Assembly (NCBI GenBank): GCA_017860375.1 | Contig: JAGDMB010000002.1 | Location: 1 to 34,872 of the forward strand | DNA: 34,872 nt | DNA from: Bacteroidota bacterium | Lineage (GTDB): Bacteria > Bacteroidota > Bacteroidia > Bacteroidales > UBA10428 | Direction: 5' to 3' | Shown here: one piece after another, positions 1,584-33,586 of the stretch | Position numbering within the stretch: position 1 is the first letter of the stretch | Layout: every line of letters begins with the position of its first letter | The notes under the pieces: generated by a model | The model's input: only the letters and a program-made list of their open reading frames with translations | Told to the model about the DNA's origin: nothing | The model's database searches: none | Made by a program: the position numbers and the translations under genes

Positions 1584-1595
1584 ACCTTTTATGAA

Positions 1596-3373: not shown

Positions 3374-3376
3374 GGT

Positions 3377-3634: not shown

Positions 3635-3705
3635 ATTATTTGTTCCATGCATCTTTTGCTCTTCGAAAAACAAGAAATTAACCATTACTCTTAAAATCTC
3701 AGGTT

Positions 3706-4911: not shown

Positions 4912-4912
4912 T

Positions 4913-8382: not shown

Positions 8383-8405
8383 AAAATGGCAATGTAGACA
8401 TTCTT

Positions 8406-8825: not shown

Positions 8826-8865
8826 GGGCCGTTGAAATGATTGTAAAGGGCTTGGTATTAAAATA

Positions 8866-10224: not shown

Positions 10225-11113
10225 TTGCTTCCCAGAAATTGTAATAATTAAACCACTGAGAGGGATACTTCCGCAGGGTACGTTCCAAAACGTAAATATA
10301 ATCTTTTATTATGGTTTGAATGGTCTGGTCTCTTTTCTGCTGTATGCCTTGCTGTTGATAAAGACGGGGAGGTGTGGCAAAGAAATGATAATGTGAAGCC
10401 GAATCTTTCATGGCAAAAACAAACGATACCGGCACATGGAATTTCATTGCCAGGTAAAAAGGACCTGTAGGAAAATTTGCTTTTTCGCCAAGGAATTCAA
10501 CAGACAGGGTTTTGCTTCCCTTTACAAATCTGTCGCCGTGAATACAGACCAGTTGTTTTTCACGGAAGGCTTTGTTGATCTCATAAATATGGGAATTGTC
10601 CTCTTTGATGGCAATGACATTGAATTTCCGGCGGGTAACCGAATCAAGATAGTACTTGATTTTTTCATGTTCTGCATCGAACATTATGATATTGACCTCG
10701 GTTTCCAGCCTTTCGAGCATATTGCCGGCCATTTCAAAATTGCCTATATGGGCACTTATCAGTAATCCTCCCGTTCTGTCTGCCACTATTTTTCTGAGGT
10801 GTTCTTCGCCTTCGTAGGTAAAGGAGAATTTTACCGGAAATCCGGCCATGACAGCAACTTTATCCAGCAATACCTGACCGAACACATAATAGTTCTTATA
10901 CACCATCTGCAGGGAATGGAAAAAGCCATATGCAAATCTTTTCCGGTAGAATGGATAGATCGCTTTAAATGCTTTTGGCAGGAACAGGAAAAAATAGAGG
11001 GCAACAAAACGCAAAAGAAAGTATGCAAAGGGCAGACCGGTGTATTTAAGCAGGGCAAAAAAAATCTTATAACCTGCTAAACCGCCGCGTGTTTTACCTT
11101 TCCAGGAAGCCAC
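10214..11113 (-). CDS. LpxL/HtrB-family (lipid A late-type / lysophospholipid) acyltransferase
   Basis: N-terminal TM anchor. SAHIGNFE (H-x4-E, compare LpxL HxxxxD/E). ~300 aa. GTG start 6 nt after the ACP stop. Confidence 0.7.
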   Translation of the reverse strand: MASWKGKTRGGLAGYKIFFALLKYTGLPFAYFLLRFVALYFFLFLPKAFKAIYPFYRKRFAYGFFHSLQMVYKNYYVFGQVLLDKVAVMAGFPVKFSFTYEGEEHLRKIVADRTGGLLISAHIGNFEMAGNMLERLETEVNIIMFDAEHEKIKYYLDSVTRRKFNVIAIKEDNSHIYEINKAFREKQLVCIHGDRFVKGSKTLSVEFLGEKANFPTGPFYLAMKFHVPVSFVFAMKDSASHYHFFATPPRLYQQQGIQQKRDQTIQTIIKDYIYVLERTLRKYPSQWFNYYNFWEANEP

Positions 11114-11119
11114 ATTGAA

Positions 11120-11368
11120 TTATTTCTTATGATAAAAGGTGTCGATATAATCGTAAAGATTTTGGAGGGTATGAATGGCAGTCATTTCTTCACCCTTCAG
11201 GGTCAATCCAAACTCTTTCTGGACAATTACTGCAATATCCACAAAATCGAGACTTTCAAGGCCAAGATCATTTTTCAGATGCGCACCGGGAGATATCTTT
11301 GATCCCTCAATCTCAAATTCCTCCACTAAAAAATCATTTATCTTATTCTCAATATCTTCCCTCTTCAT
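11120..11368 (-). CDS. Acyl carrier protein
   Basis: 82 aa, with a NDLGLESLDFVDI Ser attachment motif. Confidence 0.9.
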   Translation of the reverse strand: MKREDIENKINDFLVEEFEIEGSKISPGAHLKNDLGLESLDFVDIAVIVQKEFGLTLKGEEMTAIHTLQNLYDYIDTFYHKK

Positions 11369-11389
11369 AGGATAAAAATAAACGCAAAG

Positions 11390-12610
11390 TTAATGATACT
11401 TTTTAATAATCAAACATGAATTGGTTCCGCCGAATCCAAAGGAATTCGATAAGAAGGTATTGATTTCTCTGGGAGTTGTTTCCCTGACAATGTTCAGTTT
11501 GGAGGTAAATTCATCCGTTTCCTCTAAATTGATGTTGGGTGCAATAAAGGAATGTTGCATCATCAGCATTGAGTACACGATCTCACTGGCACCGGCCATC
11601 CACATTTCATGACCCGTCATCGATTTGGTGGAGGAAACAAGGGGCTTTTGCCGGCCAAAGATATGATCAATGGCTTTCGCTTCATTTTGATCTCCTATGG
11701 GAGTTGAGGTGGCATGGGCATTTATATAGTCAATCTGAGAAGGGTCGATGGAAGCATTTTTTAGTGCCATGGTAATAGCACGGATCGGACCATCCACATC
11801 AGGAACGGAAATGTGAAGCCCGTCAGAGGAAAAGCCATAGCCGGTTACTTCGGCAAGAATGGTAGCTCCTCTTTTCATCGCATGTTCGAGGTCCTCGAGT
11901 ATTAAAGTAGCAGCTCCGCCACTGGGGACCAATCCATCCCTCTTTTTGTCAAAAGGCCTGGATGCTTTTTCGGGCTCTGATTCGAGTTTTGAAAAAGCGC
12001 CCAGTGCATCGAAACTGCCTACACAAAAATGATTGGTTTCCTGTGATCCTCCGCAAATAACAATATTCTGGTACCCGTGCCGGATCATCATATATCCCAG
12101 GCCAATGGCATGGGATCCACTGGCACACGCTCCGCTGACGGTGAAATTAATGCCTTTAAGGTGAAAAATTACGGATAAATTCATGGTCACCGATGAGTTC
12201 ATCGACTGAAAAACGGATCCTGAGCCAACCAATGAGGTGTCTTTTTTTTCACGGATGATGTCGGCACATTCAATTACCGCGGGTGTGGAACTGTCGTTGC
12301 CAAAAAGAATGCCCACTTCATTCTGATCAAGGTATTCTTTTGTGATGCCGGCCGATTTAAGCGCCTCAACGGTTGACATATAGGCGTATTCAGCGTGTTC
12401 GGGCATACAAACGCGGGACCGCCGGTCGAGGATACCCTTCAGGACAGGTCTCTCCACTTTGCCGGTTAATCCCGACTGGTAACCCATGGCCTTTCTCTCC
12501 GGATCGAGAACAACACCTGATCTTCCATTTATAAGAGAGTCTTTCACTTCACTGAGGTTCTTTCCAATGGAAGAATAAATGCCTGTACCCGTAATAACTA
12601 CCCTTTTCAT
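11390..12610 (-). CDS. Beta-ketoacyl-ACP synthase I/II-like (KS; ApeR/FabF-like)
   Basis: SGACASGSHAIG (Cys), NAHATSTPIGD (His), MTGHEMWMAG (His), SNSFGFGGTN. Confidence 0.92.
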   Translation of the reverse strand: MKRVVITGTGIYSSIGKNLSEVKDSLINGRSGVVLDPERKAMGYQSGLTGKVERPVLKGILDRRSRVCMPEHAEYAYMSTVEALKSAGITKEYLDQNEVGILFGNDSSTPAVIECADIIREKKDTSLVGSGSVFQSMNSSVTMNLSVIFHLKGINFTVSGACASGSHAIGLGYMMIRHGYQNIVICGGSQETNHFCVGSFDALGAFSKLESEPEKASRPFDKKRDGLVPSGGAATLILEDLEHAMKRGATILAEVTGYGFSSDGLHISVPDVDGPIRAITMALKNASIDPSQIDYINAHATSTPIGDQNEAKAIDHIFGRQKPLVSSTKSMTGHEMWMAGASEIVYSMLMMQHSFIAPNINLEETDEFTSKLNIVRETTPREINTFLSNSFGFGGTNSCLIIKKYH

Positions 12611-12634
12611 ACTGCCGCAAGATATTGGATATTA

Positions 12635-13369
12635 TTATGTATAAAGTCCACCATTGACTGAGATTACTTCCCCGGTTATATAGGATGCTTTTTCCGATGC
12701 CAGAAAACAGACTACTTCAGCCACTTCTTCCGGCAATCCGAAACGGTTAAGCGGAATCAGGTTTTTTAATTCGGCCTCGTTCAGGTCCTTTGTCATATCC
12801 GTCCTTATAAAGCCGGGCGCCACGGCATTCACCGTTACATTCTTTTTGCCGATCTCCTGGGCCAGTGCTTTGGTTGCTCCGATCAAGGCGGCTTTTGCCG
12901 CGGAATAATTTACCTGTCCCGGCAGACCTTTCAGGCCCGATAGCGATACAATATTCACGATGCGACCGTATTTATTGACCAGCATGTTTTTTATCAGGAA
13001 CCGTGTGACATAAAAAAAACTATTCAGATTGGTATGGATGACATCATTCCAGTGACTGTCCTCCATCCACATGAGAAGAATATCCTTACGGATTCCTGCA
13101 TTGTTAATCAAAACCTCAACAGTTGCCTCCCTGTTTTCATCCTGCCATTTGCCCAAAGCGTCGCTCACCTGAACGGGATCGGAAACGTCAAATGGCAAAA
13201 GTTCCCCGCTGCCTCCGGCTTCTTTTATCAGGGAAAGGGTTTGCATGGCTTCTGCCTCGTTTGACTTATAATTCACAAGAATAGGATATCCCAGCGAAAC
13301 CATTTTAACGGATATGGCCCTGCCTATGCCTCTTGAACCACCGGTAACTAATGCATATTTCATTATCAA
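12635..13369 (-). CDS. 3-oxoacyl-ACP reductase (SDR, FabG-like ketoreductase)
   Basis: TGGSRGIG cofactor motif, NNAG, and the Y-x3-K catalytic pair (NYSAAKAA). The start may be 13363 (MKYALV) rather than 13369. Confidence 0.92.
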   Translation of the reverse strand: MIMKYALVTGGSRGIGRAISVKMVSLGYPILVNYKSNEAEAMQTLSLIKEAGGSGELLPFDVSDPVQVSDALGKWQDENREATVEVLINNAGIRKDILLMWMEDSHWNDVIHTNLNSFFYVTRFLIKNMLVNKYGRIVNIVSLSGLKGLPGQVNYSAAKAALIGATKALAQEIGKKNVTVNAVAPGFIRTDMTKDLNEAELKNLIPLNRFGLPEEVAEVVCFLASEKASYITGEVISVNGGLYT

Positions 13370-13377
13370 TCAAAACA

Positions 13378-14925
13378 TTAATTATTCACTTCGTGAACAA
13401 AATGGGTGCAAAGGTAATCATTAATCTTCCGAATTTCAATATATTTCACTGTATCCTCCTCAAACCTGGGAACCAGGTTCCGGAATTGCATATAGGCATT
13501 TCTTGTTCGTGAGGACAAACGGTTTTCAACAGTGAGATAGTCAATGGCCTGGATAAGGCTAAGCATTTCAACAGAAAGTACCTGGTACGTATTTTCAATG
13601 ACTTTTTTTGCCAGCAGGGCGGAATTGGTTCCCATGCTGACCACATCCTGATTATCGTTGTTGTTGGGAATGCTGTGAATGTAATTGGGGTAAGACAAGG
13701 ACTGGTTTTCAGCCACGGTAGACACAGCCGTAAACTGGGCTCCCTGCATACCAAAGTTAACACCCAGTTTTCCAAGGTTTACAAAAGGCGGAAGCTTGCC
13801 ATTCAGTTTGTCATTCATCATGTAGTTGATCTGCCTTTCCATGAGTATGGAAAGCTTTGTCATGGCAATTTTCATTTTATCCATTTCAAAGGAGATATAA
13901 TCACCATGAAAGTTACCGCCGTGAAATATGTTCTGATTGGCGTCATCAATCATGGGATTGTCACAGGATGAATTGGCTTCATTCAGCAACACCTTTTCGG
14001 ATTGCTCAAGGGTTTCAAGGATGGGGCCCAAAATTTGGGGAACACAGCGTATGGAATAATATTCCTGCACCTTGTCCGCTATGATATATTTGTCGTCAAG
14101 TTTATGATTATAAAAATGATCTTCCCGCTTGCGGATTAATTTGCTGTCGGAAAGAATTTTGCGGATTGCCGCGGCGATGGTATTTTGCCCCTCATGCAGC
14201 TTGACCTGGTTGAGTTCTTTTGAAAAACTGTCGTCGAAAGACCGGACAATCTCATTGATTGTGGCACAAACCAGCAAAGACCAGGAGAGGATATTTTTTG
14301 CATGGATCAGGTTAACGATACCGGTACCGGTCATAAAACAGGTTCCATTGATCAGGGACAATCCTTCACGCAGGTGAACCGAAATGGGCTTAAGATTGTA
14401 TTGCCGGAAGGCTTTGCCGGTATCAACAAGGGCGCCGTCACAATATACTTCCCCTTCCCCTATTAAAGCAAGGGCAACATGAGCAAGCTGCACCAGATCT
14501 CCGCTGGCGCCGACTCCGCCATGTTCAGGAACCATGGGAGTAATCCCATGATTGATCATTGCGGCAATTAATTCCACTACCTCGGGATGAATTCCGGAAT
14601 GTCCCTGTAAAAAATTATTCAACAGCACAATCAGAACAGAACGAACGTACAACGGATCAACAGGCTGACCGCTTCCGGACGCATGGCTTCTTATGGCATT
14701 GTACTGTAGACGGATCCGGTCGGCTTCGTCAATTCTGTATTGAGCCATGGGACCGAGCCCTGTGTTAATCCCATAAATTATCTTATCCTGGTGAAAAGAT
14801 TGAAGAAAATTGAAATTCTTGATTATTCTGCTTTTAACCGAATCAGGGATCTCTATTTTGGAATCTCCGTATAAAATCTTTTGAAAATCATCCGCAGTTA
14901 TCCTGCGCTCACCTATATTCAGCAT
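13378..14925 (-). CDS. MIO-dependent aromatic amino acid ammonia-lyase (HAL/PAL/TAL family; FlxA-like)
   Basis: GGVGASGDLVQLAH (Ala-Ser-Gly MIO triad), YGINTGLG, NQDVVSMG. 515 aa. Confidence 0.9.
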   Translation of the reverse strand: MLNIGERRITADDFQKILYGDSKIEIPDSVKSRIIKNFNFLQSFHQDKIIYGINTGLGPMAQYRIDEADRIRLQYNAIRSHASGSGQPVDPLYVRSVLIVLLNNFLQGHSGIHPEVVELIAAMINHGITPMVPEHGGVGASGDLVQLAHVALALIGEGEVYCDGALVDTGKAFRQYNLKPISVHLREGLSLINGTCFMTGTGIVNLIHAKNILSWSLLVCATINEIVRSFDDSFSKELNQVKLHEGQNTIAAAIRKILSDSKLIRKREDHFYNHKLDDKYIIADKVQEYYSIRCVPQILGPILETLEQSEKVLLNEANSSCDNPMIDDANQNIFHGGNFHGDYISFEMDKMKIAMTKLSILMERQINYMMNDKLNGKLPPFVNLGKLGVNFGMQGAQFTAVSTVAENQSLSYPNYIHSIPNNNDNQDVVSMGTNSALLAKKVIENTYQVLSVEMLSLIQAIDYLTVENRLSSRTRNAYMQFRNLVPRFEEDTVKYIEIRKINDYLCTHFVHEVNN

Positions 14926-15114
14926 TTAGACAATATTTGTGTTAATGAGGTGTTGAAAATATATTCCCGTATTAAAGGTCAATAAATGCTGCAAAATAAT
15001 AAAAAAACAGCTTATTATGCTAATTGTTTGCAGAATTACCCTTCTTTTTTGGGTTTAAATTAATTTGTTAACTTGCACCCTCCATCATTACTGATAAACC
15101 GGGGACAAGCGGGA

Positions 15115-16266
15115 ATGAAAACCTGTGTAATAATTCCAACCTACAACAACGGAACAACGCTTGAAGGAGTAATATCAGAGGTCCTGAAAATATCAATGGA
15201 TATAATTGTGGTAAATGACGGTTCGACGGACAATACAGCCTTGATTTTACAGAAATTTAACTCCCTGAAAACCCTGTCCTATGCGGTCAACAAAGGCAAG
15301 GGATATGCCATCCGGAAAGGATTTGAGATCGCAATAGCAGAAGGATATACCTATGCCATTACAATCGATTCGGATGGACAGCATTATGCCGGTGATATCC
15401 CTCTTTTTATTCAAAAAGTACAGGAGGAGCCGCATTCGTTGATCGTGGGTGCACGAAACCTTGTCCGTACAACCATTTCCGAATCCAGCAGTTTTGCCAA
15501 CCGGTTTTCCAACTTCTGGTATCGCTTGATTACCGGGATATCGCTGCCGGATACCCAGTCGGGTTTCCGGTTATATCCGCTTGAATTGATAAAGGAAATG
15601 CGTTTTTATACGCGCAAATACGAATTTGAGCTTGAAGTACTTGTCAGGGCGGCGTGGAATGATATAAAAATCAGCAGTGTGCCCATTCGGGTTTATTATC
15701 CGCCAAAAAAGGAAAGGGTCAGTCATTTCAGACCTTTTAAGGATTTTACCCGGATAAGCTTGCTGAATACCCTGTTCGTTATCATTTCATTGCTGTATAT
15801 TAAACCCTTTTCTTTTTTAAAATACCTGACCAGGGAAAATATCCGGAATTTTGTCACTAAACATATCCTGCTGACCGATGAAACCAATTTTAATATTGCA
15901 ATGGCAGTGGCGTTTGGCGTATTTATGGGCATCATTCCGATATGGGGATTGCAGCTGATAACGGCCATTGCCCTGGCGCATCTGTTTAAACTTAGTAAAT
16001 TCATCGTGATTGTTGCAGCCAACATCAGCATTCCGCCCATGATACCGTTTATTTTGTACGCCAGTTATATAACGGGGGGAATTCTTATGGGAACCGGAAC
16101 CAATATGCGGTTTAGCAGGGACCTGACCGTCCCGTCCTTCGAAAACAATGTATTGCAATACATCCTGGGAAGTATTGTGTTTGCTGTTATTATGGGAATC
16201 GCGACGGGAATAGCCTCCTATATTTTCGTGTCAAACCTGCGAAAAAAGCATACGGTGAATAATTAA
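15115..16266 (+). CDS. Family 2 glycosyltransferase fused to a DUF2062-type polytopic membrane domain
   Basis: CVIIPTYNNG, VNDGSTD and DSDGQH (GT2 DxD region), then ~130 aa of TM helices. Preferred start is ATG 15115 (MKTCVII); the track ORF starts at TTG 15073. Confidence 0.85.
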   Translation: MKTCVIIPTYNNGTTLEGVISEVLKISMDIIVVNDGSTDNTALILQKFNSLKTLSYAVNKGKGYAIRKGFEIAIAEGYTYAITIDSDGQHYAGDIPLFIQKVQEEPHSLIVGARNLVRTTISESSSFANRFSNFWYRLITGISLPDTQSGFRLYPLELIKEMRFYTRKYEFELEVLVRAAWNDIKISSVPIRVYYPPKKERVSHFRPFKDFTRISLLNTLFVIISLLYIKPFSFLKYLTRENIRNFVTKHILLTDETNFNIAMAVAFGVFMGIIPIWGLQLITAIALAHLFKLSKFIVIVAANISIPPMIPFILYASYITGGILMGTGTNMRFSRDLTVPSFENNVLQYILGSIVFAVIMGIATGIASYIFVSNLRKKHTVNN

Positions 16267-16269
16267 CCT

Positions 16270-19200
16270 ATGGAAGGTCTGTTTCTATTCCTCTATGGCT
16301 TCTTTAAGAATAAGCGAATTTTATTCTTTATCCTCGTTTTGACCGTGGGTCTGATTGCCTTATTTCTGGCCAGCCGGATAAGCTTTGAAGAAGACATTAC
16401 CAAAATGATTTCAGGGGCTGATAACAAGGCGAAAATCACCCAGGCTATAGAAAAATCCGGATTCCTTGAAAAAATCATTATCACCGTATCCATGGCGGAT
16501 ACGGCACTACCACCTGATCCGGAAAGGCTGATACATCAGGCTGCAAAGCTTGCCGATACGCTGCAAAGCAAAACGTTTCGACCGTACGTCAGAGGGATCA
16601 CATTCAGGATATCCCCGACCGCAATAGAGGATGTATTGGATATTGTGTACAGAAATCTGCCTGTTTTTCTTGAAGAAAAGGATTATCTCAGCCTTGACAC
16701 CCTGTTGACTCCTGCAAGAATTGAGGAGAATCTCAGAAACAACTACAATACCCTTTTATCCCCTGCCAGTTTCGCCATGAAAAAGATGATCGTGCGTGAT
16801 CCGGCAGGACTAAGCAGTGTAGCCCTGAAAAAACTCAGCGCTTTTCAGCAGGATGAAAACTACCGGATCATCAGCGACTGCATTTTTTCCAAAGACAAAA
16901 AACATCTCCTGCTCTTCGTGACAACGGTTTTCCCTGCCAGTGCCACTTCGCAAAACGCGGTCTTTGTTAAAATGATGGATCGGCTTATTTCGTCAATCGT
17001 GGAGCAGAACAACAACGAACTGAACATTGAATATTTTGGCTCAGCTGTGGTTGCAGTGGGGAATGCCGAGCGTTTAAAAAAGGACATCCGGTTGACCCTG
17101 TCCATTACGCTGGTCCTGCTTCTTCTGATCATCAGTTTTTCCATCAAGAAAAAGAGATTGTTTCCTTTTATTTTCCTGCCGGCCATTTTCGGTGGCCTCG
17201 TTGCACTTGCCGTCATCTATCTGATCCAGGCAAAAATATCCATTATTTCTCTCAGCATCGGTACGGTTATCCTTGCCATTACGGTTGATTATTCGCTCCA
17301 TATTACGATGCATTTTAAGCACAGGCATGCCATCGTGGAAACCATTAAAGATGTATCTTTTCCTATTATTGTATGCGGATTTGCCACTGCTTTTGAATTT
17401 CTCAGCCTGGTATTTGTTTCATCAGAATCGTTGCATGAACTGGGTATATTGGCAGCCATAAGCGTCATTACCGCCTCTTTTTTCACGATGGTGGTGATGC
17501 CTCATATTCTTGATCTGACGCGGGGAAAAGAGGACAAAACGGAAGAAAAAAACTACCTGGAGCGTATCCTGGATAAAATTACCCGGTATGATTTCCATAA
17601 AAACAGACTGCTGCTGCTTTTCATGATAATTTTCACCGTCGTTTGCTGGATATTCATTGATAACGTCGGCTTTGAAAGCGATATGATGAAAATGAATTAC
17701 ATATCCGACAAATTATCACAGACAGAGGAAAACCTGAATAGGATCAACAATTACAAACTCAATTCGGTATATGTCATTGCCCACGGTGACAACATTCAGG
17801 AAGCCTTATCGCACAATGACAGGCTCGTGGAAAAGGGGAATGAATTCCTTCATGAAAAAAGAATACAGAACCTGAGTTCCCCGGGAACTTTGTTGCTTTC
17901 CGATTCCCTTCAGCAGAAGCGTATCGATCGATGGAATGCTTTTTGGACAGAAGGAAAAAAGAAAGATTTCCTGAACTGCTTTGATCAGACGGCCAGGCAG
18001 ACCGGGTTTAACTCAAGCTCCTTCGGTGGTTTCCATGATCTGGTCAACCGATCCTATTCCGTCCTGGATACCCAGGATTTCAACCGGTTGCAGACGCATT
18101 TCTTCAATGAGAACATACGCATAGGGCCCGGACTTTCCACGGTGGTATCCGTGATTAAAGTGGATGATGCGAACAAGGAACCTTTGATTGATCAGATAAA
18201 TACACTTGATGGACTCGTCGTGATGGACAGGAAATCCATTCTTTCCGGGATGGTAGAGACGTTGGGGAAAGATTTCAATTTTATTGCCAATGTAAGTTTA
18301 TCGCTTATCCTGGTCATCCTTATCCTTGCATTTGGCCGTTTTGAACTGGGTTTTATCACCTTTATTCCGATATTTCTCAGCTGGGTCTGGACTTTGGGAA
18401 TTATGGGGATGGCCGGAATTAAATTCAACATTTTCAATATTATAATTTCTTCCTTTATTACGGGCCTTGGCATTGATTATAGCATCTATATTATGCAGGG
18501 GCTGGTACAGGGGTATAAAAGCGACAACAAGAGCCTGTTGTCTTACAAAACCTGCATACTGATATCGGTTATGATCTCCATATCGGGTACCGGTGTTTTT
18601 ATCCTGGCAAAACATCCTGCCCTGAATTCCATAGCCGTTATTTCCATTATCGGTTTGTCATCTGTGGTGCTGATATCCTATACCTTTGAACCGGTTTTAT
18701 TTTACTGGCTGGTAGTAAAAAAGGGCAGGAATCGTCTGTTACCCATTACCTTATCCGATATCCTTTTCAACCTGGTAGCCGCACTCTTTTTTATTCTGGA
18801 GTTTGTTTTCCTTATGATGCTCCGCATCCTCTTATTCCCGTTACCGCTCAGGAAGGAAAGGAAAAAACGGATCCTGCATGTGGGTTTCAGCTGGAGCCTG
18901 AGAGTATTGGCCTACGTTCCGTTTCATATCCGGAAGAAAACGATCAATGAAAGCCATGAGGATTTTCAAAAACCTGCCATGATAATATGCAATCATAAAT
19001 CCCATCTTGAAGTTCCGTTTATCATGAAAATGAGCCCGAACATTATTGTTCTTACTGCCAGGTGGGTCTGGAACAATCCGTTCTTTGCACCCGTCATCCG
19101 GTATCTTGATTATTATCCTTTGAATGACGGGTTTGAAACCATTTACGAAAAGCTACAGAAAAAAGTGAAGGAAGGGTATTCCATTATGGTATTCCCGGAG

Positions 19201-20133
19201 GGAACCCGTTCACCGGATTCCTCAATAAAACGCTTTCATAAGGGTGCTTTCCTGCTGGCTGAAAAGATGAACCTGGATATTGTTCCGATCATCATTCATG
19301 GGACAAAAGATTGCATGAATAAGGGGGAAAATCATATTAAGGGCGGAAGCGTCACGGTTAAGGTTTTTCCACGCATCAAAGCACAGGATAGGAGTTTTGG
19401 CAATGATTACCACGAAAAGACCAAATCGTTTCAGCGGTTTTTCAGGGAGGAATACCGCCGGATGCAAATTGAACTGGAAACTCCGGCCTATTTCAGAAGG
19501 AAGCTCATCCGGAATTATATATACAAAGGGCCCATACTGGAATGGTACACGCGGATCAAGCTTTCGCTGGAAAGCAACTATGAATGGTTCCATAATCACA
19601 TTCCCCGCGATGCGACTATCGTTGATATCGGCTGCGGATATGGAATGATGGCGTACATGTTGAATTTTACATCGGACAGCAGGAATATCCTGGGTATTGA
19701 TTATGATAACGATAAGATTGAACTTGCCAACAATTGCCTGTCTAAGAACGACAGGATCCGGTTCATTGCCGCTGATGCGGTGACTTATGATTATGCACCT
19801 TCGGATGTGTTCCTGTTAAGTGATGTCTTGCATTATATGCCGGAAGAAAAACAGGTGCAATTGCTGACTCGATGCATCGAATGCCTGAAACCCGGAGGTC
19901 AGATCATTATCCGGGATGCCGATAAGGACCTGCAGAAAAGACACCTGGGAACCCGGTCCACGGAGTTTTTTTCGACGCGCTTTGGGTTCAATAAAGCAAT
20001 CCATAAAAAGCTTTACTTTTTCTCGGGGAAGAAAATCAGGGAAACAGCAGACAGGCAAAATATGGAACTGGAAATAATCGATCATACAAAGCTGACTTCA
20101 AACCTGCTTTATGTCATGAAGCATAAATCGTAG
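16270..20133 (+). CDS. Trifunctional fusion: MMPL/RND-type transporter + PlsC-type acyltransferase + class I SAM methyltransferase
   Basis: 1287 aa. Residues ~1-815 contain two 5-6-helix TM bundles with large loops (MMPL layout). ICNHKSHLEVP (His909) and VFPEGTRS (aa 975) are PlsC blocks I and III. IVDIGCGYGMM (aa ~1118), DVLHYMP and LKPGGQIIIRD are class I methyltransferase motifs. Confidence 0.85.
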   Translation: MEGLFLFLYGFFKNKRILFFILVLTVGLIALFLASRISFEEDITKMISGADNKAKITQAIEKSGFLEKIIITVSMADTALPPDPERLIHQAAKLADTLQSKTFRPYVRGITFRISPTAIEDVLDIVYRNLPVFLEEKDYLSLDTLLTPARIEENLRNNYNTLLSPASFAMKKMIVRDPAGLSSVALKKLSAFQQDENYRIISDCIFSKDKKHLLLFVTTVFPASATSQNAVFVKMMDRLISSIVEQNNNELNIEYFGSAVVAVGNAERLKKDIRLTLSITLVLLLLIISFSIKKKRLFPFIFLPAIFGGLVALAVIYLIQAKISIISLSIGTVILAITVDYSLHITMHFKHRHAIVETIKDVSFPIIVCGFATAFEFLSLVFVSSESLHELGILAAISVITASFFTMVVMPHILDLTRGKEDKTEEKNYLERILDKITRYDFHKNRLLLLFMIIFTVVCWIFIDNVGFESDMMKMNYISDKLSQTEENLNRINNYKLNSVYVIAHGDNIQEALSHNDRLVEKGNEFLHEKRIQNLSSPGTLLLSDSLQQKRIDRWNAFWTEGKKKDFLNCFDQTARQTGFNSSSFGGFHDLVNRSYSVLDTQDFNRLQTHFFNENIRIGPGLSTVVSVIKVDDANKEPLIDQINTLDGLVVMDRKSILSGMVETLGKDFNFIANVSLSLILVILILAFGRFELGFITFIPIFLSWVWTLGIMGMAGIKFNIFNIIISSFITGLGIDYSIYIMQGLVQGYKSDNKSLLSYKTCILISVMISISGTGVFILAKHPALNSIAVISIIGLSSVVLISYTFEPVLFYWLVVKKGRNRLLPITLSDILFNLVAALFFILEFVFLMMLRILLFPLPLRKERKKRILHVGFSWSLRVLAYVPFHIRKKTINESHEDFQKPAMIICNHKSHLEVPFIMKMSPNIIVLTARWVWNNPFFAPVIRYLDYYPLNDGFETIYEKLQKKVKEGYSIMVFPEGTRSPDSSIKRFHKGAFLLAEKMNLDIVPIIIHGTKDCMNKGENHIKGGSVTVKVFPRIKAQDRSFGNDYHEKTKSFQRFFREEYRRMQIELETPAYFRRKLIRNYIYKGPILEWYTRIKLSLESNYEWFHNHIPRDATIVDIGCGYGMMAYMLNFTSDSRNILGIDYDNDKIELANNCLSKNDRIRFIAADAVTYDYAPSDVFLLSDVLHYMPEEKQVQLLTRCIECLKPGGQIIIRDADKDLQKRHLGTRSTEFFSTRFGFNKAIHKKLYFFSGKKIRETADRQNMELEIIDHTKLTSNLLYVMKHKS

Positions 20134-27580: not shown

Positions 27581-28978
27581 ATGATCATGTTTTCTGCAGA
27601 AGTATACACGCAGCGTAGAAAGAAACTCATGCAACGGGTTGAAAATGGCCTTATTGTCTTTTTTGGGAATAAGGAATCTTCCATGAACTATAGTGCAAAC
27701 ACTTATCCCTTCCGGCAAGACAGTAATTTTTTGTATTATTTTGGCCATGATGTGCCTGACCTGGCTGCGGTTCTGGATATCCAGTCAGGTGATGAGATCC
27801 TTTACGGGGATGACCTTGGAGTGGAAGACATCATATGGATGGGATACCAGGAAAAGGTGAACGAGAAAGCCGCCCGGATTGGCATACGCATGGTAAGGTC
27901 CATGGATAAACTGGCGGGCGATATCTGTAAAGCGATGGCAAAGAACAGGAAAATACATTTCTTACCTCCTTACCGGGAAGACCGAAAAGCCCAGCTTTCT
28001 TATTATCTTGAAGTAGATTATGCAAAAGCAAAGAATCCTTATTCGGAAGAATTGATAAAAGCGATTGTTGCGCAACGTTCGGTCAAGGATGAAGCTGAAA
28101 CCCTTGAAATTGAATCAACGCTGACTTCCGTGACGCGTCCCATGTATTTAAGTGCCATGAAAATGGCAAAACCCGACCTTTTTGAATATGAAATATCAGG
28201 GATGATCGAAGGCCTGGCTCTTCAGCAGGGATATTCCATGGCATATCCGACTATCTGTTCCGTCAACGGCGAAATTCTGCATAATCATTTCCACGGCAAC
28301 AAAATGAAGAATGGCAATCTGCTCATCGTTGATGCAGGTGCCGAAAGCAGGATGCATTATGCCACCGACATAACAAGGACAATTCCTGTGGGCGGAAAGT
28401 TTTCTGCCCGGCAGAAGGAAATATACAACCTGGTATTAAAGGCGGAGACAGAATGTATTTCAAGGATTCACCCCCTTATCCCATACAAAGACATTCATAT
28501 GCATGCCTCTTCCATCATTGCCGAAGGATTGAGAGACCTTGGCCTAATGAAAGGCAGTGTAACCGATATCGTCTCGGTTGGCGCACATGCGCTTTTTTTC
28601 CCGCATGGAATAGGGCACATGATGGGACTTGACGTGCATGACATGGAAGACCTCGGAGAACATTTTGTGGGATACGGCGATGAGTTTACACGCAGCGAAC
28701 AGTTTGGACTTGCCAGTTTACGGATGGCCCGCAGACTTGAACCGGGATTTGTTGTGACCGTGGAGCCGGGTATTTATTTTATTCCACCCCTTATTGAAAA
28801 ATGGGAAGCCGAAAAGCAGTTTACCGAGTTTATTAATTATACAAAAGTCAGATCGTACCTCGATTTTGGAGGTATCCGTATTGAAGATGACGTGCTCGTG
28901 ACCGAAAACGGATACCGTGTCTTGGGAGATCCGATACCCAAGACATTGAATGAGGTGGAACAGGTCTGTACGATTTAG
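27581..28978 (+). CDS. Xaa-Pro aminopeptidase (M24B, aminopeptidase P family)
   Basis: N-terminal AMP_N-like region (YPFRQDSNFLYYFG) and metal-ligand blocks (VDAGAE..YATDITRT, HGIGHMMGLDVHD, VEPGIY, IRIEDDV). Confidence 0.9.
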   Translation: MIMFSAEVYTQRRKKLMQRVENGLIVFFGNKESSMNYSANTYPFRQDSNFLYYFGHDVPDLAAVLDIQSGDEILYGDDLGVEDIIWMGYQEKVNEKAARIGIRMVRSMDKLAGDICKAMAKNRKIHFLPPYREDRKAQLSYYLEVDYAKAKNPYSEELIKAIVAQRSVKDEAETLEIESTLTSVTRPMYLSAMKMAKPDLFEYEISGMIEGLALQQGYSMAYPTICSVNGEILHNHFHGNKMKNGNLLIVDAGAESRMHYATDITRTIPVGGKFSARQKEIYNLVLKAETECISRIHPLIPYKDIHMHASSIIAEGLRDLGLMKGSVTDIVSVGAHALFFPHGIGHMMGLDVHDMEDLGEHFVGYGDEFTRSEQFGLASLRMARRLEPGFVVTVEPGIYFIPPLIEKWEAEKQFTEFINYTKVRSYLDFGGIRIEDDVLVTENGYRVLGDPIPKTLNEVEQVCTI

Positions 28979-28987
28979 CTATCCAGG

Positions 28988-29875
28988 TTACCTTAGCATT
29001 TTCAGGGCTTCGCAGATTAACCGGATATGTTCCGGAGTGGTACCACAGCAACCCCCGATAATATTGGCTCCGGCACTAATCAGTGAAGGCACAAATGAGG
29101 CCATTTCTTCAGGAGATTCAGGAAATACAGTTTTCCCATCTTCATACCGCGGCCTGCCTGCGTTGGCATGCACAAGAACGGGAATATCACGGTCAACAGC
29201 CCGAATTTCACGAACGATATCGATCATCCCTTCGATTCCGTTACCGCAGTTGGCACCGATGATATCTGCGCCGGCCTCTTTCATGACCGGAACCATTTCT
29301 GCGGGAGAAACTCCCATCATGGTCCGGTATTCACCGGTAAGGATTTTTTCAAATGTCATAGTACAGATTACTTCACAGGATGTGTTTTCATGCGCTGCCC
29401 TAACGGCTATCCGGGCCTCGTCGAGGTCGCTCATCGTTTCCACCACAATGGCATCGGATCCTCCACTGGCCAGCGCAATGCTTTGCTCTTTAAAAGCTTC
29501 GTAGAGTTCTTTTTCACTCACTTCGCCCATCATAAGAATTTTGCCAGTCGGCCCCACGGAACCCAGCACGATCTTTTCCGTGCCGGCTGCATTGCGCGAT
29601 AATTCAGCTGCACGGCGATTAATTTCCGTTACCTTTTTTTCCAGCCCGTAATGCGAAAGTTTAAATAAATTTCCGCCAAAACTGTTGGTTTCGGTCATAT
29701 CGGCACCGGCGTTGATATATTGTGCTGCAATATCCATTATTTCGGCAGGATGATCTATATTCCAGGATTCAGGGCATTCACCGGGCTTCAGACCTTTGGC
29801 ATGCAACAGGGTTCCCCATGCACCATCGGATGCAAGTACTTTTAAGATTTTCAATTTTTCAAGGATTTTTCCCAT
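28988..29875 (-). CDS. Stand-alone homocysteine S-methyltransferase domain protein (MetH N-terminal/BHMT type)
   Basis: ASDGAWGT, TETNSF, IGANCGNG and IIGGCCGTTPEHI (Zn-binding Cys triad). 295 aa, with no pterin or B12 domain attached. Confidence 0.85.
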   Translation of the reverse strand: MGKILEKLKILKVLASDGAWGTLLHAKGLKPGECPESWNIDHPAEIMDIAAQYINAGADMTETNSFGGNLFKLSHYGLEKKVTEINRRAAELSRNAAGTEKIVLGSVGPTGKILMMGEVSEKELYEAFKEQSIALASGGSDAIVVETMSDLDEARIAVRAAHENTSCEVICTMTFEKILTGEYRTMMGVSPAEMVPVMKEAGADIIGANCGNGIEGMIDIVREIRAVDRDIPVLVHANAGRPRYEDGKTVFPESPEEMASFVPSLISAGANIIGGCCGTTPEHIRLICEALKMLR

Positions 29876-29911
29876 TTTCTGTTTTTTAATGACGTATCAG
29901 TTTGCAGCGAT

Positions 29912-30583
29912 TCAGACGATCCATTGCTTCAGATATTCCACAGCCCCCTGTGGATCAGGCGAGTAAAAGTCAGCTCCAATTTTTTTCCGGAATTCATCCG
30001 TCACAGGTGCACCTCCAATGATTATTTGGGTTCCGGGTGCCTGCTCGTGGATCTGCTTTACAATCGATTCCATATTTACCATAGTGGTGGTAAGCAATGC
30101 GGATAAACCGACAATGCAGCCGGGGTGGTCTTTAACAGCCGCGATGAATTTTTCCGCTTTTACATCAATACCCAGATCGATCACTTCCCAACCGTTACCC
30201 TCAACCATCATGGAAACCAGGTTTTTACCAATATCATGCAAATCGCCGACCACGGTTCCAATAATGAAGGTTCCCTTTCTTTTTACCTCCCCTGAACGGA
30301 AAAAGGGTTTCAGATGTTGCATGGCCGTATTCATGGCTTTGGCCGACATCAACACCTGCGGCACAAATACTTTGTTTTCCCTGAATTTAATACCGACTTT
30401 TTCCATTCCGACAACCAGCCCACGGATTAATACATCCGAAGGAGGCACTCCTTTATCAAGGGCCATTTTAGTCAGTTCATCGGCTCCATCCAGCCCTTTC
30501 ATATCAGGAGGATACGGGGAAGCCTTGTCGGTTTTTCCAAATTCAATGCAGTGTGCAATTTGCTGAAGTAATTCTTCCATCAT
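29912..30583 (-). CDS. Corrinoid (cobalamin-binding) methyl-carrier protein
   Basis: Helical cap followed by a Rossmann B12-binding domain: GTVVGDLHDIGKNLV (DxHxxG), SALLTTT (SxL), IIIGGAPV (GG). 223 aa. Confidence 0.9.
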   Translation of the reverse strand: MMEELLQQIAHCIEFGKTDKASPYPPDMKGLDGADELTKMALDKGVPPSDVLIRGLVVGMEKVGIKFRENKVFVPQVLMSAKAMNTAMQHLKPFFRSGEVKRKGTFIIGTVVGDLHDIGKNLVSMMVEGNGWEVIDLGIDVKAEKFIAAVKDHPGCIVGLSALLTTTMVNMESIVKQIHEQAPGTQIIIGGAPVTDEFRKKIGADFYSPDPQGAVEYLKQWIV

Positions 30584-30638
30584 TCAAATCGTTTAGTTTG
30601 TTTCTCTCCTACAGGGTATTTTATCATCCCGTTCGGAT

Positions 30639-31883
30639 TTACCGGTTAAACTCCCGGAGTGCCTGTATCATCGAAATAACATTCTCAACGGGAACATTGG
30701 CCTGAATATTATGAACGGTAGTGAACACAAATCCTCCGTTTTTGGAAAGTATTTCACATTGGCGCAATACCTGGTTTCTTACATCATGGATGGTACCAAA
30801 ACTAAGGACATGCTGTGTATCAATCCCGCCACCCCAGAAGACAACCTGATTACCATATTTTTCTTTCAGCCTCACCGGATCCATGCCTTTTGCTGTAATC
30901 TGAACGGGATTAAGGATATCAAATCCCGCTTCTATGAAATGACTGATTAATGTTTCAACTGCACCGCAGGAATGTTTAAAGGTTTTCCAGGTAGTATTGG
31001 CATGCACCCAGTCATTAATCTTCCGGTAGTATGGCAGCCAGAGATCATCAAAAGTTTCCGGTGAACAGAATGTAGAATCCTGCGTGCCGAAATCGGTACC
31101 GCAAACATACAGAACATCAATGGTATTCCCGGCAATGGCTGCCAACTTTTTCAGATTGCCGACTGCAATGTCCGATTGTTTGTCAAAAACGGTCCGGATA
31201 TAGTCCGGACGCAATACCAATGACATATACCATTCCGTAATATCCCGTATTCCTTTCGGATGTTTTAAAAAGGGTGCCGGTACGAGGGCGATATCGCCGA
31301 TTCCTGTGCCGCCAAAATTGGCTACAATGGCTTTATCGCTTCCTCTTATGGAATTAATCTGGTCTTTCCAGTAATTCAGGTCCTGTTCAGAAACCGGTCT
31401 GAACTCTTCCAGATTATCTTTCGGATCCAGCAAGGACTCCACAATGATGGCATCAAAGAAAAATCCTGTTTTAGGCATTTTGGCGCTGGGATGGGCTTTC
31501 ATGTCACCCTCAGGATAAATCAGCAAATCACCATTTTCATCCAGACGGGTATTGAATAATTCAGGCACAAGGATTTCCTGCCCCCAGAATGTCTGGAATT
31601 CTTTCCATCCGGTTGACGAGAATCCAAACATATTGTCCGGCGGCGATAACCCTATCGCATCGATGCCCATCAGCTGCTGTAATTCAGCATCGATCTCTCC
31701 CAGCATCTGATAAGGCTCGGTGAGTTTAACAGGGCGTTTTTCCAGTCCATAATGATCCCTGAGCTTTTCAACCATCCGGATATGAATTCCGGTTACGGTC
31801 GTGCTTCCAAAGTCAACAGGAACCTTATCGGGTAACTGATGCCCAAGGGATTGCTGTACCCGTTGTTTTGAATTCATACCCAT
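30639..31883 (-). CDS. URO-D-superfamily (MtaA/MtbA/MtsA-like) putative Zn-dependent corrinoid methyltransferase
   Basis: 414 aa. KHSCGAV (His-x-Cys), with a further Cys 70 residues downstream (LRQCEIL), echoes the MtaA Zn site H-x-C...C. TIM-barrel-length protein directly upstream of the corrinoid protein gene. Confidence 0.7.
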   Translation of the reverse strand: MGMNSKQRVQQSLGHQLPDKVPVDFGSTTVTGIHIRMVEKLRDHYGLEKRPVKLTEPYQMLGEIDAELQQLMGIDAIGLSPPDNMFGFSSTGWKEFQTFWGQEILVPELFNTRLDENGDLLIYPEGDMKAHPSAKMPKTGFFFDAIIVESLLDPKDNLEEFRPVSEQDLNYWKDQINSIRGSDKAIVANFGGTGIGDIALVPAPFLKHPKGIRDITEWYMSLVLRPDYIRTVFDKQSDIAVGNLKKLAAIAGNTIDVLYVCGTDFGTQDSTFCSPETFDDLWLPYYRKINDWVHANTTWKTFKHSCGAVETLISHFIEAGFDILNPVQITAKGMDPVRLKEKYGNQVVFWGGGIDTQHVLSFGTIHDVRNQVLRQCEILSKNGGFVFTTVHNIQANVPVENVISMIQALREFNR

Positions 31884-31936
31884 TGATTTACAGTATGCAG
31901 GTTAATCCGATCCGTCCGCAGACCACAGTTTCAGTT

Positions 31937-32734
31937 CTATTGCTCTTGTCTGATAAAGGAAATCAGGTGTTCTGCACAGGTTTCCTTTTCCTCGACAAAA
32001 CCCATATGTCCGGAATTCTTCAATAACAATATCCTCCCCCTTTCATTTAGTGGGATCCGATCCTTTGTTGCCTGAAAGTTAATATAATTATCTTTTTCGC
32101 CCAACATACAGAGCAATGGAATAGTGCTTTCCTTCATTACAGCAGTGGTGTCGTGCCTTTTTTTCATTCCCTCCAGGGCAGAAATAATACCTTCTTCAGG
32201 CGTTTCATGTGCGATCAATTTTGCTTTCTCAATTTCGATCCTGAATTTTTCCAGGTTGTCATCGGCAAATCCTTTCGGTATGTTGACATTGATGATCCGG
32301 TCTTTTTTTCCCTGCCGCACCAGTTCAATTTCCCGGTCACGGTTTGTTTTCTTTTCCTCCGTATCCGAAAAGGGTGTCGAGTGCAACAGACATAAACCCC
32401 GAAGCCTTTTTATATTGGATTCGGCTGCCGCAAGGGCGACATAACCTCCCATCGAATGGCCTGCCAGGAAAAAAGTATCCACGGAAAGTGCATCCAGCAT
32501 GGCAAAAACAGATTCTGCCATATTGTGCATGGTATGCACTCCTGCAACAATTCCCGATTTCCCGTGTCCCGGAAGGTCCATGCGAATAACCCTGCAATGA
32601 TTTTGCATCAGGGCTGCAAAATCATCCCAGATATGCAAGGATTCAAGGTATCCGTGCAACAATACAAGGGGAATCCCTTTCCCTTCCGAAACTGCATAAA
32701 GTTGTGCCTGACGAAATCCGATCCGGTGCATCAT
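31937..32734 (-). CDS. Alpha/beta-fold hydrolase
   Basis: LLHGY oxyanion region, GHSMGG nucleophile elbow, C-terminal SGHM (His). 265 aa. Lies 53 nt upstream of the URO-D-like gene on the same strand. Confidence 0.8.
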   Translation of the reverse strand: MMHRIGFRQAQLYAVSEGKGIPLVLLHGYLESLHIWDDFAALMQNHCRVIRMDLPGHGKSGIVAGVHTMHNMAESVFAMLDALSVDTFFLAGHSMGGYVALAAAESNIKRLRGLCLLHSTPFSDTEEKKTNRDREIELVRQGKKDRIINVNIPKGFADDNLEKFRIEIEKAKLIAHETPEEGIISALEGMKKRHDTTAVMKESTIPLLCMLGEKDNYINFQATKDRIPLNERGRILLLKNSGHMGFVEEKETCAEHLISFIRQEQ

Positions 32735-32858
32735 ACGATTCTGTTTTTAATGGATTGACAAACCTGCACGCCTAAAGATACTAAAAAAACATTTATTTAA
32801 ATTGGTTCTAAATTACAGGTTTATGCTAAAAGCATTTTAATAAATGAAGCACAGGAGA

Positions 32859-32866
32859 TATATTTG
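32859..32866 (+). promoter_or_regulatory. Putative Bacteroidota -7 promoter element (TATATTTG)
   Basis: Exact TAnnTTTG match about 48 nt upstream of ATG 32915 (sdhC). Confidence 0.35.
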
Positions 32867-32914
32867 TATAAGGCATAGATTTTTCGTTTTCATCACTCCT
32901 TTAAATACCATTCT

Positions 32915-33586
32915 ATGAGCAATATATTCGCTTCCTCCATTGGAAAAAAGCTGATCATGTCGCTGGCCGGTTTGTTTTTGATCCTATTCCTTATCGTTCA
33001 CCTGAGTATTAATCTGTCGCTTATTTTTTCGGATTCCCGGGAAATCTTTAACAAGGCCGCACATTTCATGTCTTCCAATATCCTCATAAAAATTTTTGAG
33101 GTTATCCTTTTCGGAGGATTCATTCTGCATATGTTTTATGGCCTTTACCTGCAAATTAAAAACTGGTTTGCAAGGGGCAGGAGATACAGGATTGAAAATT
33201 TTTCGCAGACCTCCTTCTTTTCAAAATTCATGATTCATACCGCTGTTATTATTGCGGTTTTTCTTGTTTTGCATCTGATGGATTTCTATTTCAAGGTTAA
33301 AATCGTTGGCGATATACCCGAGGTGTTCTATAATGGGAAATCTTATCATGACCTGGGTTTACTGGTCATTGAAAAATTCAAAATACCGGGATTCGTCCTT
33401 TTCTATCTTGCCTGTTTTGTATTTCTCGCTTTTCATTTGCTGCATGGATTCTGGTCGGCTTTTCAGACCCTGGGACTGGATCACAAAGTGTATACCCCCA
33501 TCATTAAGGCAGCCGGGATCCTGTACACTTTCCTGGTAGTTGCCGGTTTTATGCTTATACCGGTTTATATTTATTTCTATATGTAA
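32915..33586 (+). CDS. sdhC: Succinate dehydrogenase/fumarate reductase cytochrome b subunit (Bacteroides type)
   Basis: 223 aa with five hydrophobic helices and conserved His residues (IVHLSINL, LHMF, LHLMDF, FHLLHGFW). Sits immediately upstream of the flavoprotein subunit. Confidence 0.8.
   Translation: MSNIFASSIGKKLIMSLAGLFLILFLIVHLSINLSLIFSDSREIFNKAAHFMSSNILIKIFEVILFGGFILHMFYGLYLQIKNWFARGRRYRIENFSQTSFFSKFMIHTAVIIAVFLVLHLMDFYFKVKIVGDIPEVFYNGKSYHDLGLLVIEKFKIPGFVLFYLACFVFLAFHLLHGFWSAFQTLGLDHKVYTPIIKAAGILYTFLVVAGFMLIPVYIYFYM

Follow-up and report, generated by a model that had tools for sequence, protein, structure and literature searches.

Several systems that move methyl groups over a corrinoid protein have been described, and we compare with them a three-gene locus (28988-31883, minus strand) of a Bacteroidota bacterium (lineage UBA10428, assembly GCA_017860375.1), found in a 34,872-nt stretch of contig JAGDMB010000002.1 that was analysed as a whole and is called the window below. 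The methionine synthase MetH of the short T. maritima type has a separate activation protein, and for the split MetH of roseobacters Price 2018 is reportedly the source. In roseobacters the stand-alone PF02574 protein MtgE and the corrinoid protein MtgC are modules acting in trans and form a hub shared by the making of methionine and the demethylation of glycine betaine (Mausz et al. 2025, PMC12478193). A cluster of an MttB homologue, a homocysteine methyltransferase (HcyMT), a corrinoid protein and an activation protein has been proposed, as a hypothesis only, to make methionine from an unknown non-folate donor (PMC9324843, 2022). The window locus resembles MetH in its homocysteine module, homologous at the 40% level with all zinc and homocysteine motifs, in its B12-binding cap and Rossmann domains with DxHxxG, and in the stand-alone Met_synt_B12 of its relatives' cassettes; here, however, the modules are separate polypeptides, no pterin (methyltetrahydrofolate, CH3-THF) module is linked to them, and a UroD-superfamily protein is found instead. 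Roseobacter MtgBCDE uses a donor-side methyltransferase (MT1) of the MttB superfamily, an essential pterin protein (MtgD) and RamA-type re-activation, whereas our locus has a putative UroD-type MT1 and no linked pterin gene, and re-activation in its relatives would be of the MetH type. The hypothetical cluster shares the three accessory modules and differs on the donor side (MttB/MtgB there, UroD here). The design of an MT1, a corrinoid protein and a stand-alone homocysteine module is thus not new in principle, having precedent with MttB-family MT1s (PMC9324843, PMC12478193); the putative UroD-type MT1 family found here and its sugar link are both uncharacterised. An earlier note on this DNA, made from the sequence alone, knew of no characterised system of this composition in Bacteroidota, and in the databases and literature searched we likewise found generic names and no assigned function, no case of a homocysteine module working with a donor enzyme of the UroD type, and no characterisation of the clade.

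The three genes encode a UroD-superfamily protein of 414 aa (UROD414, 30639-31883; PF01208), proposed as MT1; a corrinoid protein of 223 aa (Corr, 29912-30583; PF02607 and PF02310); and a stand-alone MetH-type homocysteine module of 295 aa (HcyMT, 28988-29875; PF02574), proposed as the second methyltransferase (MT2). We put the chances at about even that they are a reduced version of a modular corrinoid methyl-transfer cassette, relaying a donor's methyl group by way of UROD414 and the cobalt of the corrinoid to homocysteine. More tentatively, the donor may be a methylated carbohydrate. The joint action of the three proteins, the direction of methyl flow and the identity of the donor are points that we infer. 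A fourth minus-strand gene, for a 265-aa hydrolase (31937-32734), precedes UROD414 and lies outside the cassette proper. The open reading frame (ORF) map reproduced the coordinates of the four co-directional genes given in the earlier note and the gaps of 53, 55 and 36 nt along them.

HcyMT matches PF02574 at E 2e-69 (234.8 bits, cutoff 22), with residues 16-291 covering profile positions 3-283 of 283. Its motifs are DGAWGT (17), TNSFG (63), ETM (146), NCG (209) and GGCCG (274), and C210, C276 and C277 form the predicted three-Cys zinc site. Over its whole length the protein can be aligned with the T. maritima MetH homocysteine module (1Q7M, E 5e-52), DGAxGT, TNxFG, ET, the NC cysteine and GGCCGTTPEH all being matched, and the zinc and homocysteine motif residues are invariant across nine orthologues. 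The profile and motif matches bear out the earlier description of a free-standing domain of the MetH N-terminal type. A full-length fused MetH is ruled out by the length of 295 aa and by a score of 166.7 bits, against a cutoff of 1010.85, to the full-length models TIGR02082/PRK09490, of which only the first ~310 profile positions are matched. The second-best NCBIfam match is PRK07534, the S. meliloti 'Bhmt'/MtgE type (251 bits). We propose that HcyMT is an MtgE-like module that would act as a methyl-corrinoid:homocysteine methyltransferase. Close relatives run into the thousands, all of them stand-alone proteins of ~294 aa with generic names only. When metagenomes were scanned with HcyMT as the seed, most matches were MetH proteins of ~800 aa and YitJ-type proteins of ~620 aa, which have GGCCGTTP in common with it, and only about ten loci were informative.

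The 223-aa protein matches PF02607 (E 2e-16) and PF02310 (E 6e-26), both above cutoff, and has DLHDIG at 114, SAL at 161 and GG at 190, so that the canonical DxHxxG/SxL/GG cobalamin carrier recognised earlier is found again. By these domains and motifs it is a predicted His-on corrinoid carrier, with a cap helix bundle and a Rossmann domain. Its orthologues in related cassettes are 65-84% identical. The nearest NCBIfam models are MtgC, pyl_corrinoid and MtbC, the best being corrin_MtgC_2 (196 bits, cutoff 370). Assignment to a named substrate-specific equivalog (MtgC, MtbC or MtaC) was rejected, every model scoring below cutoff.

UROD414 forms a branch of its own, deep within the UroD superfamily, as its weak family scores and its distant fold and profile matches to MtaA and the uroporphyrinogen decarboxylases (HemE) indicate. 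It reaches 44 bits with PF01208 (cutoff 23.9) over its C-terminal half only, and its AF2 model (pLDDT 95, pTM 0.93) has the UroD TIM-barrel fold; the protein was thus correctly read as URO-D-type from the sequence. The best PDB fold match of the model is MtaA (4AY7/4AY8, E 3e-13, 18% identity), with HemE second and MetE weaker; the MtaA and HemE structures together give E 3e-13 to 1e-9 and TM 0.53-0.68. A PDB search with the lone 414-aa sequence gave no match, and matches needed the family profile, which found MtaA (E 4e-8), then HemE, and weakly the chloromethane MT1 CdmB (9RUI, E 0.024, over 58 C-terminal residues only). Two candidate identities were rejected. UROD414 is not a HemE, since MtaA ranks above HemE in the profile and fold searches and the protein has 414 aa against an architecture of ~350 aa; HemE models were also absent among its NCBIfam matches. 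Nor does it belong to TIGR01463 (MtaA/CmuA), to which its C-terminal half alone scores 43.6 bits, far under the cutoff of 235.4. It is ~75 aa longer than MtaA and has a beta-rich insertion at about residues 76-136. The systems with a UroD-type MT1, namely the O-demethylases OdmB/VdmB/MtvB/MtoB and the chloromethane system CdmBCA (PMC13222342), are alike in having an MT1 of ~415-430 aa with N-terminal insertions, a small corrinoid protein and an MT2, but their MT2 is of the pterin/tetrahydrofolate (THF) kind, they have an ATP-dependent activating enzyme and they use aryl methyl ethers or halomethanes.

The UROD414 family is large: more than 8000 database proteins were scored, rank 120 still being 63% identical, and 732 clusters at 50% identity have E < 1e-30. 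Among species-representative genomes it is found in Bacteroidota (Prolixibacteraceae, Rikenellaceae, Cyclobacteriaceae, Draconibacterium, Mariniphaga) and, at 55-66% identity, in Planctomycetota, Lentisphaerae, Verrucomicrobia, Latescibacterota, Omnitrophota, Fibrobacteres, Gemmatimonas and Anaeromyxobacter. Such identity over distant phyla implies strong constraint and probably horizontal spread.

The cassette is recognised by its relatives, which we designate by L-numbers. In its fullest form (L001, L006, L025, L058) it reads GntR/Peripla_BP_3 - UROD~418 - UROD~334 - Corr - UROD539 - HcyMT - CobW - activation domain, the last being a stand-alone domain of the MetH type (Met_synt_B12). The same three genes as in the window are joined by a Met_synt_B12 activation domain in L172. 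The best evidence for UROD414 as a corrinoid partner comes from L005, L010 and L087 (a 41% relative), where a UROD414-type gene is followed directly by Corr with no other methyltransferase nearby. Over a wider sample, 13 of the 83 neighbourhoods tabulated have a Corr gene no more than five genes from UROD414, and a B12-cassette gene within the same distance in 15 of 80 loci. UROD539 (L001:11014-12633; L004:7110-8729; L006:10105-11724; others) is a 539-aa protein whose N-terminal domain is MtaA-like (E 1e-29 to 4AY7) and whose C-terminal region is thioredoxin_3-like. In the fuller cassettes its gene is always just upstream of HcyMT, and relatives of HcyMT follow it where the contig allows (L090, L091). 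Neither UROD539 nor UROD334 is present in the window. Directly after the UROD414-Corr pair, L005 (8950-9372) and L010 (10952-11374) encode a 140-aa flavin-binding PNPOx_N protein; both loci lack HcyMT and the activation domain, and the protein could be an alternative corrinoid reductase or an acceptor-side factor.

The same relatives bear on a different account, in which Corr and HcyMT are modules of an ordinary CH3-THF:homocysteine methyltransferase, a split folate-dependent methionine synthase whose pterin module and activation protein lie elsewhere, in the manner of MtgC/D/E in Phaeobacter/Ruegeria. UROD414 would then be an optional extra feeder or unrelated, and this account may coexist with the relay proposed here. 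L170 and L171 carry hydrolase-Corr-HcyMT only, with no UROD, and the content of the cassette is modular (L004, L172). Ruegeria has its modules scattered, with a single corrinoid protein used for CH3-THF as well as for glycine betaine (PMC12478193), and the PRK07534 match of HcyMT points the same way. On the other hand, gene calling, available for the cassette loci L001-L006 and L172, gave no gene with a pterin domain (other cassette loci were screened only with nine cassette proteins), and no PF00809 pterin module was matched by Pfam among the window ORFs scanned. The regulators of the related cassettes are of a sugar type, Rfam found no SAM or B12 (cobalamin) riboswitch in the window or eight related loci, and the UROD414-Corr pairs stand alone in L005, L010 and L087. 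Taken together, we consider a split folate-dependent synthase rather unlikely. The idea of a non-folate methionine operon put forward earlier keeps its corrinoid carrier, its stand-alone homocysteine module, a UroD-superfamily protein as the probable other catalytic partner and the lack of a pterin module in the window, but 'no folate module' was overstated beyond the window, because a Corr-HcyMT pair alone, as in L170 and L171, could serve a pterin protein encoded elsewhere.

The predicted metal site of UROD414 gives a first indication of the donor. In the alignment of the family profile with the PDB, HSCG (H304, C306) lies opposite the zinc-binding HICG of MtaA. The third ligand of MtaA is the Cys of PGCG, which is retained in UROD334 (AGCE) and UROD539 (PGCD) of the related loci; UROD334 has the conserved His-Cys-Cys, and in UROD539 the zinc His is replaced by Phe (FVCGH) with both Cys kept. 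H391 of UROD414 (VHNIQ) lies opposite the third Cys of the MtaA-like UROD334 (hhalign, probability 98.9). Among 52 family members (28-81% identity), H304 and D264 are each found in 52 and H391 in 47; C306 is found in 47, with Asp in the other five. C376 is Cys in five of the 52 representatives and otherwise hydrophobic, mostly I/L/M, and this poor conservation, together with the alignment of H391, excludes it as a zinc ligand. Since H391 aligns with the third Cys of MtaA and C376 is not conserved, the site is likely His-Cys-His (H304/C306/H391) rather than His-Cys-Cys, with the invariant D264. The H-x-C...C pattern likened earlier to MtaA/MtbA/MtsA is present as a string (H304/C306/C376), but C376 is not the counterpart of the third ligand of MtaA.

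His-Cys-Cys marks the S/Se-methyltransferases of the UroD superfamily and loss of Cys the O-methyltransferases (Kountz and Balskus, PMC10418091). This matters for the possibility that UROD414 demethylates methanethiol, dimethyl sulfide, methylmercaptopropionate or methylselenide and that the methyl group goes to homocysteine, by analogy with MtsA/MtpA or type 1 mlp clusters. MtaA, a thiol methyltransferase, is the best structural and profile match, the fuller cassettes hold the MtaA-like paralogues UROD334 (His-Cys-Cys) and UROD539, and mlp clusters are likewise without a folate methyltransferase (PMC10418091). Against this, the His at the third-ligand position and the Asp in place of C306 in some members follow the O-methyltransferase pattern (PMC10418091), identity to MtaA is 18% and the TIGR01463 score is far below cutoff, the neighbours of UROD414 are sugar genes and not sulfur or selenium genes, and the His-Cys-Cys paralogues are absent from the window. 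Salvage of methylthiols or methylselenides is therefore improbable in our view, and the thiol/Zn argument for methylthiol donors in the earlier note does not stand, given a predicted His-Cys-His site and family neighbours that are most commonly sugar transporters, glycoside hydrolases and sugar kinases. The coenzyme M methyltransferases MtaA/MtbA/MtsA and the Mlp proteins encoded in type 1 mlp clusters (PMC10418091) share with UROD414 the HxCG motif and the lack of a linked folate methyltransferase; beyond its low identity to MtaA, UROD414 differs by its His third ligand, its ~75 extra residues, the lack of a Ram/RACE gene and its sugar neighbours. Membership in a type 1 mlp cluster was rejected, there being one UroD protein, at 18% identity to MtaA, and no Ram/RACE-like gene among the window ORFs scanned.

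An O-methyl sugar is favoured over a methylthiol as donor because of the sites that the UROD414 family occupies in other genomes. The five genes on either side of UROD414 were clustered in 80 loci and the top families annotated. A sugar porter of the major facilitator superfamily was found in 25 of the 80, immediately adjacent and on the same strand in 20, followed by glycoside hydrolase family GH2 (20), GFO/IDH/MocA oxidoreductases (12), GH120-like proteins (10), hexokinase (9), 3-keto-disaccharide hydrolase and ROK kinase (8 each), GntR/PBP regulators (7) and GH29 fucosidase (6). At least one of sugar porter, GH2, GH29, GH120-like, hexokinase, ROK, GFO/IDH/MocA, DUF1080 and GntR/PBP was near UROD414 in 51 of 80 loci, and sugar-type and B12-cassette genes were both near it in 6. 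Sugar genes interrupt the stretch from UROD414 to the B12 genes in the orders UROD414-hexokinase-activation domain (L071), UROD414-GH36-UROD334-Corr-...-HcyMT-activation domain (L008) and GntR-DUF1080-GFO-UROD414-GH120-FKBP-Corr-...-activation domain (L058). In L074 a fucosidase, a hexokinase and a second GH2 separate UROD414 from UROD334 and the activation-domain gene, and the fetched stretch contains no Corr or HcyMT gene. The regulators of the related cassettes are of the sugar-sensor type GntR/Peripla_BP_3. In L175 (8738-10885) a 29%-identical paralogue of UROD414 that keeps LHCCG and TVHNI lies 9 nt from an HcyMT gene, inside a locus of GH78 rhamnosidase, GH109 and GH29 fucosidase genes that has no corrinoid gene for 10 kb around, which suggests UROD414 paralogues specialised for different glycans with the corrinoid carrier in trans.

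Other genes recur beside UROD414. In Cytophagales/Cyclobacteriaceae loci, an O2-dependent enzyme, a PhyH-type Fe(II)/2-oxoglutarate dioxygenase, is encoded within the B12 methyl-transfer cluster, between the UROD414 and corrinoid genes (L011:10343-12026, L029:3870-4775), accompanied in L011 by a xylose-isomerase-like TIM barrel. A ~190-aa protein without a Pfam match occurs in 16 related Rikenellaceae/Bacteroidales loci (e.g. L076:8174-8746, minus strand) and in 13 of them is divergently transcribed immediately upstream of UROD414.

From these neighbourhoods we would advance, as a possibility on the doubtful side of even, that the 414-aa family is an oxygen-independent carbohydrate O-demethylase with a UroD-type His-Cys-His site, passing methyl groups over the corrinoid to homocysteine. 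Candidate substrates are 6-O-Me-galactose, 2-O-Me-fucose and -xylose, 3-O-Me-hexoses and 4-O-Me-glucuronate; as alternatives, methyl esters or methyl glycosides would be less demanding chemically. Methyl ethers on sugars stand in the way of glycan breakdown, and the only characterised sugar demethylase is an O2-dependent cytochrome P450, which acts on 6-O-methyl-galactose in aerobic marine bacteria (PMC6292453). It may do the same job, the removal of a sugar methyl ether within a glycan-degradation locus, but it is an unrelated protein that needs O2 and yields formaldehyde, whereas the route proposed here would be independent of O2 and conserve the methyl group. For anaerobes, a 2025 gut porphyran study states that demethylation "has not been elucidated yet" (PMC12316285), and the literature searched contained no corrinoid-dependent sugar demethylase, the P450 route being the only one described for sugars. 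The UROD414 family is thus a concrete candidate for anaerobic sugar demethylation with defined partner proteins. If the proposal is true, the split-MetH principle of one corrinoid/homocysteine hub with interchangeable donor enzymes reaches the UroD superfamily, the vitamin B12 demand of Bacteroidota is tied to polysaccharide use, and glycan-degrading Bacteroidota, Planctomycetota and relatives could unblock methylated sugars and gain the methyl groups of methionine without folate or O2. Should the donor instead be methylthiols, or CH3-THF by way of a module not seen here, the locus differs only modestly from systems already known.

In the proposed relay, glycosidases encoded nearby would free the O-methyl sugar from the glycan and the porter would import it. 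UROD414, functionally standing in for the pterin module of MetH as the donor-side enzyme, would bind the methylated substrate at its predicted His-Cys-His metal site, and the Co(I) form of the 223-aa protein would take the methyl group from the bound substrate; the demethylated sugar could then be phosphorylated by the linked kinases. HcyMT, holding homocysteine thiolate on its Cys3 zinc site, would take the methyl group from methyl-Co(III), giving methionine and regenerating Co(I). Occasional Co(II) would be repaired with S-adenosylmethionine (AdoMet) by the MetH-type activation protein, and CobW GTPase would load zinc; both are present in relatives' cassettes, and as the window has no re-activation or zinc-delivery gene, both functions must come from elsewhere in the genome. 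Methyl flow in the opposite direction has only a slim chance in our estimation. Here the PF02574 protein would demethylate methionine or S-methylmethionine onto the corrinoid, and UROD414 would methylate an acceptor, for instance a thiol or the hydroxyl of a sugar. In MtsA/MtpA-type systems the transfer of methyl groups from thioethers to Co(I) is known to be reversible, and PF02574 members also take S-methylmethionine or AdoMet as donor (NCBIfam PRK09485 match), but the chemistry disfavours methyl transfer from methyl-Co(III) to an alkoxide, the company of glycoside hydrolases, sugar importers and kinases speaks for catabolism rather than methyl-sugar biosynthesis, and the homocysteine and zinc site of HcyMT is MetH-like.

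Several points weigh against the relay from a methylated carbohydrate to homocysteine. We know of no characterised case in which Co(I) cleaves an aliphatic methyl ether on a sugar. The UroD-type MT1s that are known act on aryl methyl ethers or halomethanes and pass the methyl group to THF (PMC13222342). In about 65 of the 80 UROD414 loci, neither a corrinoid nor an HcyMT gene lies that near, within five genes, so that in most orthologues the partnership must be in trans, and the Corr-HcyMT pair retained in L170 and L171 is independent of UROD414. The activation protein is absent from the window. Finally, compared with P0001 and P0003, database proteins 99% identical to it, the UROD414 of the window has an in-frame 15-nt deletion at 31440-31455 (residues ~146-147) that removes five residues, IRQDP. 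The Arg-Gln pair lost in this way is conserved in the other 18 orthologues of alignment A1, so the window copy may be impaired, or the deletion may be an assembly or strain variant. With this deletion and with UROD539, CobW and the activation gene all absent, the window cassette looks reduced and could be partly degenerate.

The hydrolase gene upstream of the cassette had earlier been counted as a component of the system, a four-gene operon in which the hydrolase would release the methyl donor, for instance from an ester, for UROD414. The 265-aa protein belongs to the Abhydrolase families, with an alpha/beta fold and an intact GHSMG nucleophile elbow at 92, and no NCBIfam model reaches its cutoff. 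Its strand is that of the cassette, 53 nt away, and the hydrolase gene stands ahead of cassette genes in five loci. What follows it differs among these related Bacteroidales loci: Corr-HcyMT only, without UROD, in L170 and L171, UROD414-Corr-HcyMT in the window, UROD417-Corr-HcyMT-Met_synt_B12 in L172, and UROD417-Corr-UROD539/Trx-HcyMT-CobW in L004, the closest relative (UROD 80% identical). In L173 and L174, however, the hydrolase (49-52% identical) sits beside sdhCAB with no B12 genes, and in the remaining tabulated loci with UROD414 no hydrolase orthologue was found as close as five genes to it. All five co-occurrences have the whole surrounding synteny in common and so reflect common descent rather than independent linkage. 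Because its orthologues adjoin sdhCAB either without B12 genes or with variable cassettes, the hydrolase is a resident of the sdhCAB neighbourhood and no conserved component of the cassette, though it may be co-transcribed; it travels with sdh, and the cassette is the variable insert. The four-gene operon is largely refuted by synteny, leaving a functional role for the hydrolase very improbable.

In L004, L170, L171 and the window, the cargo sits between the hydrolase gene and a gene for an M24 aminopeptidase (27581-28978, plus strand; PF05195 and PF00557), which in the window is convergent with the cassette and forms its downstream border; this flank recurs in L004, L170 and L171, whereas L173 has its M24 gene between the hydrolase and sdh genes, and in L172 and L174 different genes lie downstream. 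The stop codons of the M24 and HcyMT genes are 9 nt apart, which leaves no space for the CobW and activation genes found in relatives. Hidden Markov models of the activation domain and CobW, run against all six-frame window segments of at least 40 aa, gave no match at E <= 1, in agreement with the earlier statement that no activase or AdoMet-reactivation domain is in the window. On the other side, a divergent intergenic region of 180 nt (32735-32914) separates the hydrolase gene from an sdhC-like gene (32915-33586, plus strand) whose synteny is shared with L004, and is the sole sizeable non-coding stretch upstream of the four-gene run. None of the relevant intergenic regions on the minus strand, including this one, has the Bacteroidetes -7 motif TAnnTTTG, sigma-70 promoter and terminator scans of the window gave matches no better than chance, and no Rfam family was found anywhere in the window, nor any riboswitch or other RNA in eight related loci.

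The remainder of the window holds housekeeping genes and an unrelated flexirubin/aryl-polyene-like lipid biosynthesis cluster (1092-20133, strands mixed). The cluster has several ketoacyl synthases and also encodes a 4HBT thioesterase, a polysaccharide deacetylase, a LolA-like protein, an aromatic amino-acid ammonia-lyase, a short-chain dehydrogenase/reductase (SDR), a GT2/DUF2062 protein and a lipid A-type acyltransferase. Within it lie genes for a B12-binding radical SAM protein (8866-10224, minus strand) and for a 1287-aa fusion of MMPL, acyltransferase and SAM-methyltransferase domains (16270-20133, plus strand).

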